In this document: positions 14,360 through 18,921 of the stretch, piece by piece
Numbering within the stretch: the first letter of the stretch is position 1
Layout of the letters: every line of letters begins with the position of its first letter
Assembly: GCA_903835385.1 (NCBI GenBank)
Contig: CAILMQ010000046.1
Span: forward strand, 4,861-68,860
Reading direction: 5' to 3'
DNA: 64,000 nt
From: an uncultured Candidatus Micrarchaeota archaeon
GTDB lineage: Archaea; Micrarchaeota; Micrarchaeia; Anstonellales; Bilamarchaeaceae
The notes under the pieces: model-generated
Database searches by the model: none
Told to the model about the DNA's origin: nothing
What the model saw: only the letters and a program-made list of their open reading frames with translations
Translations under genes and position numbers: made by a program

Positions 14360-15763
14360 TCAGGACAGTATCCTTTCGGCCATCTTCTTCGCGTCGAAGC
14401 GCTCGATGTCCTCGTATTTCTGGCCCGTCCCTATGTAGATTATGGGGATGCCCGTGGCCTTGGACACGGAAAGCACCGCGCCGCCCTTGGGGTCGCAGTC
14501 CAGCTTCGTGAGTATCACGCCGTCCACGCCGATTTCGCGGTTGAACGAGGACACCTGGCCGATTATGGACGAGCCCGCTATGGACTCCCCGACATATATC
14601 TTCAGGTCCGGCTTTATGACGCGGTCCATTTTTTTCAATTCGTTGATGAGGTTCACGTTCGTGTCCTGCCTGCCGGCGGTGTCGATGAGCACCGCGTCCA
14701 TGCCATGGGCCCTGGCGTAGTTCACGGCGTCGTAGGCCACGGACGTGGGATCCGAGCCGTATTCCCTTTTTATGAGCCTGACGCCGAGCTTCGTGGCGTG
14801 GATTTCCATCTGTTCTATGGCCGCTGCGCGGAACGTGTCAGCCGCGGCGAACACGACCTTGCAATCGTTCTGCATGAGCATGTGCGCCACCTTGGCGATG
14901 GTCGTTGTTTTTCCTGCCCCGTTTATGCCCAGGAAAATTATTTTCACCGGCTTCTCCTTGGTTCTCACCTGCTCAAGGATGTCCAATGGCTCGCCCACCG
15001 ACATCGTGTCCAGCAGGGTGCTGGCCATGGCGTCCTTCACGAACTGGCTGAGCTGGCCCTTGCCCACCTTCGCGCCAACGAGCTTCTGCGCCAGTTCCTG
15101 CCTTATGGACTCGGCGACGCCCAGCTCCACGTCGCTTTCCAGAAGCTCCAGCTCGAAGTTCTCCAGAAGCGATTTCACGTCGTCCTCGGATATCTCGACC
15201 TCTCGCGTGACGAATGATTTTATCGCCTTCAGGGGGTTGAGCGAGACCTGGGATTTCTTTTCGCGCTCCTTCTCGTCATGGAATTGCGGGAGCGAGACGG
15301 CTGGTTCGGGTTTTTGCGTTTCGGTTTCGGGCTTGGGTTTCGTTTCTGTTTTTATTTCCGGCTGGGGTTGCGGTCTTGGCTTCGCCGCGGCCGCGATTTC
15401 GGGTTTTGGCTTTTGTTTTTCTATTTTCGGCTGTGGTTTTTTTTCGAACGCGATTGCGGGTTTTGGTTTTTCTTTTTCCATTGCGGGCTCTGGCGTTGTT
15501 TCTGTTTTCGGTTCCGGCTTTTGCTTTTCGATTTCCGGCTCCCGCTTCTTTTCGAACGCGATTTCGGATTTTATTTTTTCTTTTTTGATTTCAGGTTTTG
15601 GTTTTATTTCTGGTTCTGGTTCCGGTTTCGTTTCTACTTCCAGTTCTGCCTTAGTTTCAATTTCCGGCCCCGGCTGCGCCTCGGCCTGCTCGGCTTTCGC
15701 CTCCCCCTTGCCACTGAGGCCGTCGATGAACCCGCTTATCTTTTTCTTTAGGAAATCAAACAT
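14360..15763 (-). CDS. ftsY: Signal recognition particle receptor FtsY with about 170-aa Lys/Pro/Glu-rich N-terminal extension
   Basis: SRP54-type GTPase motifs (FLGINGAGKTTTIAKVA, DTAGRQ, TKLD). Sits at the end of the conserved pfdA-ftsY string. Confidence 0.95.
   Translation of the reverse strand: MFDFLKKKISGFIDGLSGKGEAKAEQAEAQPGPEIETKAELEVETKPEPEPEIKPKPEIKKEKIKSEIAFEKKREPEIEKQKPEPKTETTPEPAMEKEKPKPAIAFEKKPQPKIEKQKPKPEIAAAAKPRPQPQPEIKTETKPKPETETQKPEPAVSLPQFHDEKEREKKSQVSLNPLKAIKSFVTREVEISEDDVKSLLENFELELLESDVELGVAESIRQELAQKLVGAKVGKGQLSQFVKDAMASTLLDTMSVGEPLDILEQVRTKEKPVKIIFLGINGAGKTTTIAKVAHMLMQNDCKVVFAAADTFRAAAIEQMEIHATKLGVRLIKREYGSDPTSVAYDAVNYARAHGMDAVLIDTAGRQDTNVNLINELKKMDRVIKPDLKIYVGESIAGSSIIGQVSSFNREIGVDGVILTKLDCDPKGGAVLSVSKATGIPIIYIGTGQKYEDIERFDAKKMAERILS
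15415..15630 (-). repeat. In-frame 108-nt tandem duplication within the FtsY low-complexity N-domain
   Basis: TTTTCGAACGCGATT recurs at 15441 and 15549. The protein units are KSEIAFEKKREPEIEKQKPEPK and KPAIAFEKKPQPKIEKQKPKPE. Confidence 0.7.
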
Positions 15764-15835
15764 GCGCTACACTTCGTAACAGAAGCCAGATACCACACGG
15801 CTTGCGGAGCATCGGCCAGACCTAAGACGACCACA

Positions 15836-16013
15836 TGCCCGCTTCTTTGCGGGCACAATCATGTTGCCGAGCAACATGGTGCAATCGCATTCGTCGCAAC
15901 GAATGCGGTGCGCAATGAACGAAACGTCGTTCATTGCCGCCCCATTGTTCGAATCGTCGAACAATAGGGTGGGTCCCATTGTCCGAATCGTCGGACAATG
16001 CGGACGCACCCGT
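15836..16013. other. Array of six consecutive perfect hairpins / palindromes in the pfdA-ftsY spacer
   Basis: Stems read directly from the sequence. 15836-15855: 7 bp. 15860-15878: 7 bp. 15884-15909: 8 perfect bp, up to 11 with extension and wobble. 15912-15937: 11 bp. 15944-15965: 9 bp. 15977-16000: 10 bp, extendable to 15967-16011 with one C.C mismatch and an unpaired c16001. Loops are 4-6 nt. Confidence 0.8.
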
Positions 16014-16066
16014 AGAAAACAGAAAGAAAACAGCGGATCACCGGCTAATGAGAAGACAGAAATCAG
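16006..16066 (-). repeat. Dispersed 3'-flank element, copy 1 (immediately after the pfdA stop)
   Basis: Shares the core ACAGAAAGAAAACAGCG...ACCGGCTAATGAGAA...GAAATCAG with copies at 29821, 40688 and 57857 (reverse). The pyrimidine-rich strand is the gene-sense strand. Confidence 0.65.
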
Positions 16067-16509
16067 ATATAGTCTTCCTTGACCCCGGCTTCCACCTGGT
16101 TGTTGAGCCTGAGCTGCTGCTCGACATCCTGGAGATTGAGCATTACCTCGCGGAGCTTCCTGTTTATCTTCTCGAACTCCTCGTTGAGCCTTGTCACGGC
16201 CTGGCGCGTGGCGTCCACCCTGCGCTGGAGCTCGACGGCAGCTTCGCCCTTTTCCATGTCAATGGCGAACTCGGCGCCTATGGGCATTATCACGCGGGTG
16301 TCCTTTATCTCGGACCTCACGAAAACCCCGCCGCCGATGGGGGCGAGTATCTGCTCGGCCTTGAGCCCGTTGACGGACTGCACCGCGCTGGTGAGGTCCA
16401 TGGTGGTCAGCGAGACCCTTTCCATCTCCCTGCGGAGCATGGTGAGCTGCTCGCGGTAGACCGCGACCTCGTAATTCATCCTTACCCTGTTTTCCTCGAG
16501 CGAGGCCAT
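16063..16509 (-). CDS. pfdA: Prefoldin alpha subunit
   Basis: Length 148 aa and a coiled coil / beta-hairpin / coiled coil layout. Conserved position between LX and ftsY. TGA-ATG abutment with the upstream gene. Confidence 0.85.
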   Translation of the reverse strand: MASLEENRVRMNYEVAVYREQLTMLRREMERVSLTTMDLTSAVQSVNGLKAEQILAPIGGGVFVRSEIKDTRVIMPIGAEFAIDMEKGEAAVELQRRVDATRQAVTRLNEEFEKINRKLREVMLNLQDVEQQLRLNNQVEAGVKEDYI

Positions 16510-16692
16510 TCATCCACCTGATTTCTCGACGCGCTCTATTTCCATGCGGGAGCGCTTCACGCCGTTATTGGAACCGAAAAGCGCATAAGCCTTTTCCCGC
16601 GCCGCGTTCTCGGTCTCTGCGTCCAGGACCTTGGAGAACTTCCGCTCGCCGCGGCCGAGTTTTATTTTTCCGGAAACGTTCCATTTCATCAA
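16510..16692 (-). CDS. rplX: Ribosomal protein LX / L18Ae (eL20 family)
   Basis: 60 aa, ...KFSKVLDAETENAAREKAYALFGSNNGVKRSRMEI. Conserved position between aIF6 and pfdA. Confidence 0.8.
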   Translation of the reverse strand: MMKWNVSGKIKLGRGERKFSKVLDAETENAAREKAYALFGSNNGVKRSRMEIERVEKSGG

Positions 16693-16707
16693 ATCACCCC
16701 GAATGTT

Positions 16708-17370
16708 TCAAACATAACCCAATGCCGATTCCACGCGCCCAAGCTCGTGGGCGCTCGTCGCCTCGCCGGCGGCATAGCCGTGGCTGTTCGCGACCACTCC
16801 GAAGGAAACGAAGCCCGTTCCCATGTTCACGGTCCCGCGCTCGCCCTTCACCTTGAACGCGGACTCCAGCGTTTTCATGTCATCGTCGCTGGCCGCATAG
16901 TGCGCCAGGAACCCCCTGTTGCCCGCGAGGCAGGACGAGCCGACGGTGGCATAGTCGCCTATGCGCATGGGAACGAGCTCTATTCCCAGCGCGTCCTCCA
17001 TCTTCCTGCGCTCCGTGGCGTGTATGTGCGGGTTTACCACCCCGCCCTTGTCATTTATGGCAAGGTTGTTGCCGTGGGCGTTCTGCCTCTCCGGCGAATG
17101 ATAGACGTTCAGGCCGAAGGACTTGAACACCGCGGCCTCCTGGGGCGAGGCGATGTTCGGCATTATGACGCCGTTGTTGTTCATCGCGAGATAGACGCCA
17201 ACGAGGTTCGAGTCCCCCACCGAAACCCTGCGCACTTCCGCCTTGAGGCTTCCATGAAGGCCCGCGAGGAGCTTGTCCGGGCAGTCCAGCGGGGCAAGCA
17301 CCATGCTGTCGCTCGCCTTGACGAACATGCCTATCCACGGATTCCCGTAATATGAGCACCTCTCGCGCAT
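16708..17370 (-). CDS. eif6: Translation initiation factor 6 (aIF6)
   Basis: Pentein-repeat sequence (YYGNPWIGMF..., NLVGVY..., NAHGNN...). Start moved to Met35 of the ORF-track call, 7 nt after the L31e stop. Confidence 0.9.
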   Translation of the reverse strand: MRERCSYYGNPWIGMFVKASDSMVLAPLDCPDKLLAGLHGSLKAEVRRVSVGDSNLVGVYLAMNNNGVIMPNIASPQEAAVFKSFGLNVYHSPERQNAHGNNLAINDKGGVVNPHIHATERRKMEDALGIELVPMRIGDYATVGSSCLAGNRGFLAHYAASDDDMKTLESAFKVKGERGTVNMGTGFVSFGVVANSHGYAAGEATSAHELGRVESALGYV

Positions 17371-18867: not shown

Positions 18868-18921
18868 GCACAAAATTTTGCGAAATTTTGTGCGACAACA
18901 TGGTAAATCGAATTTACCATG
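18868..18921 (-). terminator. Two consecutive perfect hairpins downstream of the transporter gene
   Basis: GCACAAAATTT-tgcg-AAATTTTGTGC (18868-18893) and CATGGTAAAT-cga-ATTTACCATG (18899-18921). They begin 36 nt after the stop at 18957. Confidence 0.5.

Follow-up and report, generated by a model that had tools for sequence, protein, structure and literature searches.

Six tandem hairpins between pfdA and ftsY of a Micrarchaeota archaeon very likely belong to a recently inserted, dispersed and non-autonomous palindromic element

What are six perfect hairpins doing back to back in the spacer between the genes for prefoldin alpha (pfdA) and the SRP receptor (ftsY) of an uncultured Candidatus Micrarchaeota archaeon? 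The locus lies in a stretch of 64,000 nucleotides, hereafter the window, from contig CAILMQ010000046.1 (positions 4,861 to 68,860 of the forward strand; assembly GCA_903835385.1). The original prediction, made from the letters of the window, had offered three roles for the array at this locus: an intercistronic processing or stability element, a structured ncRNA, or operator sites for a dimeric DNA-binding protein. An inverted-repeat search over 15836-16000 recovered six inverted repeats with arms that are 100% complementary, all of them where they had been predicted; the predicted loops of 4-6 nt were found in five, the sole deviation being the 3-nt loop of H2. Hairpins with a 9-bp stem and a 4-nt loop were oriented by their loop, and a covariance model, R1, was built for this unit. 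The array and its flanking genes are as follows.

14360-15763, minus strand: ftsY (SRP receptor), the downstream flank (Pfam PF00448, E = 1.2e-70).
15836..15855, no strand: H1, arms 15836-15842/15849-15855, TGCCCGC-6 nt-GCGGGCA, 7 bp; outside the R1 unit family.
15860..15878, no strand: H2, arms 15860-15867/15871-15878, CATGTTGC-3 nt-GCAACATG, 8 bp; unmatched by R1.
15877..15915, minus strand: H3 unit, core 15886-15907, stem 15886-15894/15899-15907, 9 bp, 4-nt loop; R1 34.5 bits, E = 2e-8.
15906..15944, plus strand: H4 unit, core 15912-15937, stem 15912-15922/15927-15937, 11 bp, 4-nt loop; R1 37.1 bits, E = 3e-9.
15936..15974, plus strand: H5 unit, core 15944-15965, stem 15944-15952/15957-15965, 9 bp, 4-nt loop, CCCCATTGTTCGA-atcg-TCGAACAATAGGG; matched by R1 in the genome search (G000:C46:20796-20834).
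15970..16008, plus strand: H6 unit, core 15977-16000, stem 15977-15986/15991-16000, 10 bp, 4-nt loop, with a 1-nt 3' bulge and an outer helix; R1 44.3 bits, E = 2e-11.
16063-16509, minus strand: pfdA (prefoldin alpha), the upstream flank (Pfam PF02996, E = 5.6e-16).

Much of what had been said about the structure of the array stood. The last two hairpins are paralogous as proposed, since the 25-mers of H5 and H6 share 92% identity, the T>C and A>G substitutions that separate them being paired. The H5 stem can be extended to 16 positions at 88%, and both of the pairings foreseen for GGGTGGG, leftwards and rightwards, appear in the folds. The fold of the 299-nt spacer as RNA is very stable (z = -6.98 on the minus strand and -7.49 on the plus strand, none of 200 shuffles being as stable), with an energy of -136 kcal/mol on the transcribed strand. 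Spurious ORFs are indeed present on both strands. The suggestion that structure is maintained was also borne out by the paralogous copies described below, in which compensatory changes are abundant, the outer helix covaries and the stems ATTGTTCGA, ATTGTCCGA, ATTGCCCGA and AATGTCCGA are each perfectly paired. A search of Rfam 15 with positions 15000-17000, both strands, up to E = 10, gave no match.

The array is not an ancestral feature of the two genes. Just 9 nt lie between pfdA and ftsY (..KEDYI-CGA-TTTCCC-ATG..) in the closest relative, a member of the same genus whose 1.57-Mb chromosome is complete and whose FtsY is 88-90% identical. Among the 28 Micrarchaeota loci with both genes the spacer is no longer than 87 nt in 20, by an automatic estimate in which some longer values stem from the script's choice of ftsY start codon, and a stray hairpin of at least 7 bp was found in three of the 28, never more than one per locus. 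Because the spacer is 9 nt in the closest relative and short elsewhere, with at most one stray hairpin, we conclude that the array is a lineage-specific insertion. The 126-nt core was essentially absent from 40 relatives, including those of the same genus, with one partial match (79%, in G022). The original prediction had itself named a spacer absent or unstructured in close relatives, or a lineage-specific insertion free of transcript ends and covariation, as what would speak against it, and the 9-nt spacer largely bears this out. In the closest relative the pfdA stop TGA reads CGA, so that pfdA and ftsY make a single frame of 619 codons (L048:1795-3654), which is either a prefoldin-FtsY fusion or else a sequencing error.

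A self-search of the window's own 1.29-Mb assembly (89% complete) located five copies of the element, at C32:27277-27401, C47:27381-27504, C11:33963-34044, C22:5098-5192 and C22:9370-9464, all of which are without H3 and H4; the C11 copy has H1, H2 and a variant H5 and is without H6. A sixth copy, at C15:1301-1470, is a base element without the hairpin cassette. Alignment of the long copies with that on C15 resolves three layers, namely a base element of about 110 nt, a cassette of about 115 nt with H1, H2, H5 and H6, and a 58-nt insert with H3 and H4, which are placed in the window as follows.

15764..16062, no strand: the pfdA-ftsY spacer in full, a 299-nt inserted repeat element of composite build with homologous copies on C32, C47, C11, C15 and C22.
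15764..15831, plus strand: left module of the base element (about 110 nt), ..CAGAAGCC..CACGGCT..CGGAGCA..GACGAC; aligned in four long copies and found at C15:1301-1470 without the cassette.
15832..16002, plus strand: the hairpin cassette (H1, H2, H5, H6) with the nested H3/H4; the same cassette minus H3/H4 is on C32, C47 and C22 (two copies).
15881..15938, no strand: the nested 58-nt (-)(+) doublet of H3 and H4; peculiar to the window copy, every other aligned copy having a gap.
16003..16062, plus strand: right module of the base element, GACG..AGAAAGAAAACA.CGG.TC..TAATGAGA..; conserved in C32, C47, C11 and C15.

The cassette enters the base element at GACGTC|GTC: the empty site on C15 reads GACGTC|GTCTCC and the filled one GACGTC|CAC...GTGGTC|GTCTTC, and the cassette also stands free in two ribosomal protein genes. 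Nesting is not confined to this point. Another two-hairpin insert, of 51 nt, lies in the left module of both C11 and C15, and in a sister genus a tnpA element is split at its left end by a comparable insert, about 60 nt long. A stretch of 67 nt with a hairpin doublet is 100% identical between C11:34084-34140 and C15:1376-1442, and this identity points to a very recent copy event. In the few junctions that were resolved, two nested insertions are preceded by ..CGTC and terminate in ..GGTC. GTC is directly repeated at two nested junctions and CATGA at one (rpS10), while one inserted doublet starts with the reverse complement of its flank (GCTCCG-TC-CGGAGC). Neither a repeat search nor the alignment of the long copies gave convincing long terminal inverted repeats at the ends of the element.

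Other sites can likewise be compared with their empty counterparts. The rpS10 stop codon of the closest relative overlaps the start of the next gene (ATGA), whereas the window's genome has a 257-nt copy there, flanked by the duplicated CATGA. The two free-standing cassettes, in the genes for uL24 and eL19 (both on C22), lie in frame within the tails of the proteins and encode about 40 residues, including ANMPAEKSGH(D/N)HVAGQHGAPLFESSNNRVGSPLPESSGN, with the reading frame staying open; the relative's orthologues keep the tails and the C-termini without the cassette. These tails (C22:4656-5312 and C22:8865-9668) are of about 100 residues, rich in lysine, glutamate, alanine and proline, and reach the start of the next gene; the N-terminal region of FtsY, 170 residues long, resembles them. 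Removal of the in-frame copies as bulge-helix-bulge introns was considered and found no support: the one fold inspected, the minimum-energy fold of the uL24 copy, has a plain 5-bp closing helix and no bulge-helix-bulge, and splicing is unnecessary as the uL24 frame is open.

The hairpins H3-H6, which are all that R1 matches in the 64-kb window, belong to a much larger family. Its unit consists of an outer helix of 3-4 bp, a 9-bp stem ending in CGR, an NNCG loop, the complementary arm, a 1-nt 3' bulge and the partner of the outer helix. Three CpGs are invariant. The unit has a direction, since 49 of 54 perfect units have the NNCG loop on one strand and the bulge is on the 3' side of that same strand, and the oriented unit (bulge side and NNCG loop) is conserved across many genera. 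Units were selected without regard to the outer helix, which can therefore serve as an independent check: its pairing reaches 74.5% in the bulge register, compared with 55.8% in shuffled units (reached in none of 500) and 23-50% in slid registers, and compensatory changes were found at all four of its pairs. Stems were perfect in 49 cases and had one mismatch in 11, two-mismatch candidates being at background level. The single mismatches include four G.T and no A.C (p = 0.125), a weak hint that wobble is tolerated on the NNCG strand, as in RNA.

We counted 54 R1 units in the window's genome, 19 and 1 in two genomes of the same genus, the latter being the closest relative; genomes from the family's other genera have as many as 43. 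Of the family's 37 genomes 26 have units, as do 2 of 24 that represent other families in the order. Of 19 adjacent pairs, nine are (-)(+) doublets with linkers of 5-8 nt and none is (+)(-), and pairs offset by 28-29 nt likewise occur in G016, G044, G053 and G005. Within the window's array, H3 is inverted relative to H4-H6. The H5 unit was also found in four metagenome contigs, each time with a different second hairpin beside it. With respect to transcription the units have no bias, nine being sense and 14 antisense (p = 0.40). Viral contigs gave 48 isolated matches to the pattern, one weak match to the full model and no arrays, with no sign of a viral reservoir. One further two-hairpin element occurs at C15:68972-69021 and C63:16561-16610 with an identical stem and one loop inverted (agcg against cgct), which suggests that loops can flip through the palindrome.

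A census that used our own crude gene calls places the family in a genome rich in palindromes. There are 109 perfect hairpins of at least 9 bp genome-wide, against about 30 in an order-3 Markov simulation, and four of them fall within 115 nt in the pfdA-ftsY spacer. Some 60 clusters have at least two hairpins, the largest having six. Intergenic DNA makes up 12% of the genome and holds 86 of the 109, distributed among tandem (51), convergent (16) and divergent (12) spacers in numbers that roughly follow spacer length. A second two-hairpin palindrome family, GCACAAAATTT-N3-5-AAATTTTGTGC beside CxTCGTAAAT..ATTTACGAxG, is represented in the window at 18868-18921; the pattern of its first hairpin has 13 sites in the genome, mostly in short spacers between same-strand genes. 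This family could represent promoters, terminators or a further repeat.

An insertion with dispersed copies, modular nesting and a strand-asymmetric unit, restricted to one Micrarchaeota family and very uneven in copy number, is very likely a recently inserted, dispersed and non-autonomous palindromic element. Strand asymmetry, inverted doublets, nesting, indifference to transcription and uneven copy number fit elements that are REP/BIME/REPIN-like or derived from IS200/IS605, and some units are found beside enzymes of that superfamily. In three genomes (G016, G050 and G021) the distance between tnpA genes and arrays of R1 units is 25-250 nt, with the units on one side, an adjacency expected by chance in about 1% of cases per genome. 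Units with stems of the H5 and H4 type are located 5' of tnpA; the stems beside tnpA match H5 and H4, with the H4 stem next to the gene in G016. The tnpA genes score above the cut-off of NF033573 (93-114 bits for three full-length copies and 38 bits for the truncated G050 copy), and those adjoining units score as IS200 and fall below the RAYT cut-off. The window's genome has a decayed tnpB element of the IS1341/IS605 type (C10:9830-11040, in three frame fragments) with an R1 unit on its 5' side and a 3' hairpin, GAAGCCCATGGCTTTAGCCATGGGTAGTTCAC, that is 91% identical to the hairpin beside and downstream of tnpA in G016 (genus g15). There is a weak likeness, of 11 exactly matching nt (E = 0.035), between GAAGCC+CACGGCT of the left module and the hairpin that closely follows tnpA in L098.

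Other comparisons did not extend the association. The window's genome (89% complete) has no PF01797 match to indicate a Y1 gene, and tblastn with three TnpA proteins found no remnant of one, though a missing transposase gene in incomplete MAGs is weak evidence. Across 37 genomes of the family, the presence of Y1 (PF01797) did not correlate with hairpin load (8/21 against 4/16, p = 0.49), and ten further Y1 loci have no adjacent units. TnpB (PF07282), with two copies here and eight in the relative with a single unit, did not correlate with the units either.

Based on these observations, we think it reasonably probable that the six hairpins represent non-autonomous palindrome repeats nested into a composite, which entered an ancestrally tiny spacer after the split from the closest sequenced relative, and that they act in cis as the structure for copying as single-stranded DNA, with an IS200/IS605-type enzyme in trans as the likeliest agent. 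The nesting runs from the base element through the four-hairpin cassette, set within it, to the H3/H4 doublet within the cassette. Copying as single-stranded DNA would proceed through the hairpins, probably by an IS200/IS605-type (HUH/Y1) transposase provided in trans, as for REP/REPIN-RAYT and PATE; mobilisation by a Y1 transposase is no more than our best available guess. Perfect stems may persist because intact hairpins alone propagate, or through correction of one arm against the other, rather than for a function of host RNA. At pfdA-ftsY the element would be a tolerated passenger, expression of ftsY now presumably having to take place across the very stable structure of the spacer or behind it. 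Only tentatively, and with more doubt than conviction, would we go further and see in the family an archaeal counterpart of REPIN-RAYT, in which an IS200-type Y1 enzyme replicates oriented doublets via single-stranded DNA and the repeats persist and expand vertically, nest and add peptides to ribosomal proteins.

The elements could also have been moved or copied without an IS200/IS605 enzyme, either as MITEs mobilised by a target-duplicating DDE transposase or by host replication and repair, through fold-back or template-switch synthesis or microhomology-mediated insertion. The short junction repeats (GTC twice and CATGA once) are atypical of classical IS200/IS605 and could reflect a DDE-type enzyme or microhomology-mediated events. 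The doublet that starts with its flank's reverse complement, the flipped loops on identical stems and the window's genome without a Y1 gene lean the same way. However, conservation of an oriented unit across many genera argues for a specific recognition factor and not for random fold-back, terminal inverted repeats of the MITE type were not found at the element's ends, and tnpA adjoins units in three genomes. We consider this explanation unlikely.

Given that the pfdA-ftsY array is a dispersed repeat, that its spacer is absent in the closest relative, that its units lack orientation bias and that Rfam holds no match, none of the locus-specific roles first proposed finds support here; the array may still have acquired an effect on the pfdA-ftsY mRNA. 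The foremost of them was an RNA element of benefit to the host, which as a stabiliser, processing site or attenuator would uncouple the two genes of the operon. Such secondary effects are known for bacterial REPs (PMC3733652), the fold on the transcribed strand is very stable (z = -7), single mismatches include four G.T and no A.C, and read-through into ftsY seems needed, there being no evident TATA-like box before it. Against this, the spacer is missing in relatives, units occur in both gene orientations, 12 hairpins lie in divergent spacers, some copies sit within coding tails, H3 is inverted with respect to H4-H6 and no Rfam family is matched, so a host RNA element is improbable. The specific form of intercistronic stabiliser or terminator hairpins was rejected on three of these counts, namely orientation (9 against 14), divergent spacers and the relatives' missing spacer.

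It is very improbable that the array serves as dyad operators on double-stranded DNA for a dimeric protein: TGTYCGR-N4-YCGRACA occurs 21 times here against none for the reversed control, recurs in sister genera and is mostly intergenic, but stem sequences vary widely among units while each stays perfectly self-complementary, the one-sided bulge and covarying outer helix have meaning in single strands only, some copies are intragenic and arrays comprise as many as six, and copy number falls from 54 to 1 within one genus. We give equally little credence to a free-standing, multi-copy gene for a structured ncRNA between pfdA and ftsY, for which one may cite the flanking modules of about 110 nt common to five copies, the BRE/TATA-like stretch of the right module and, on C47, a TATAAA 25-30 nt before the ATG of the next gene, but which matches no Rfam family, gains and loses whole modules among copies, varies in orientation relative to neighbouring genes and is absent from a same-genus relative.

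These results remove a tempting false lead, that the hairpins are a regulatory RNA of the SRP-receptor operon, and describe a clearly defined hairpin-repeat family of DPANN archaea together with a covariance model by which its members can be detected. Selfish palindromes evidently expand even in symbiont genomes of 1.3 Mb, where they split tightly coupled genes and enter ribosomal protein genes in frame. For the annotation of such genomes it is relevant that the repeats give rise to spurious ORFs and are a probable cause of broken assemblies. Should the link to IS200/IS605 prove true, biology of the REP/REPIN type would extend to Archaea; if the family is truly a counterpart of REPIN-RAYT, Archaea would have their first system of this kind, and it would be in a symbiont with a reduced genome.

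Our literature search found no paper on this hairpin family, nor on any MITE or REP in Micrarchaeota. REPINs have been stated to be undetected in archaea (bioRxiv 10.1101/2021.07.10.451892), whereas loosely defined 'REPs' were reported there in a 2025 survey (PMC12306157). Like the REP/BIME/REPIN-RAYT systems of bacteria, the Micrarchaeota family has short strand-asymmetric hairpins in tens of copies, mainly extragenic, with inverted doublets, mosaic clusters, patchy copy number between close relatives and, in some genomes, a physical link to Y1 genes of the IS200/IS605 superfamily. In contrast to these systems, its host is an archaeon (DPANN), its units carry no GTAG tag, and its unit combines a 9-bp stem and NNCG loop with a 1-nt 3' bulge and three CpGs that do not vary; the window's genome has no RAYT gene, and the transposases that adjoin units elsewhere score as IS200. 

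A second likeness, drawn by description, is to the CGTC-tagged REPs, which include RPE-4 and RPE-6 of Rickettsia and which have stems of 8-9 bp, loops of 4-5 nt, stems that often start with AT and a predominance of dimers; some lie in frame in protein genes, and a dedicated transposase is not evident (Di Nocera et al., 2013, PMC3733652). Stem and loop sizes, AT stem starts, dimers, in-frame intragenic copies and the lack of a dedicated transposase are common to both. However, a CGTC-like 5' flank is found in about 5 of 49 Micrarchaeota units and is base-paired there rather than an unpaired tag, and clusters are common in the Micrarchaeota family whereas they are rare in the CGTC families.

The PATEs and MITE-like derivatives of IS200/IS605 and IS1341 are similarly non-autonomous and rich in palindromes, and in our case end-like hairpins appear to be common to the repeats and the lineage's tnpA/tnpB elements. 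Unlike PATEs, the Micrarchaeota elements have homology to the ends of full-length elements that is short and partly ambiguous, as well as short junction duplications, and their small two-hairpin doublets appear to insert alone, the left end of one tnpA element being among their sites. The BOX elements of pneumococci are also modular, their end modules being conserved and their internal hairpin modules varying in number; their host and sequences are unrelated to ours, and this likeness is one of architecture only. For these reasons, our best reading of the pfdA-ftsY element is that its closest fit lies with the REP/BIME- or PATE-like non-autonomous elements.
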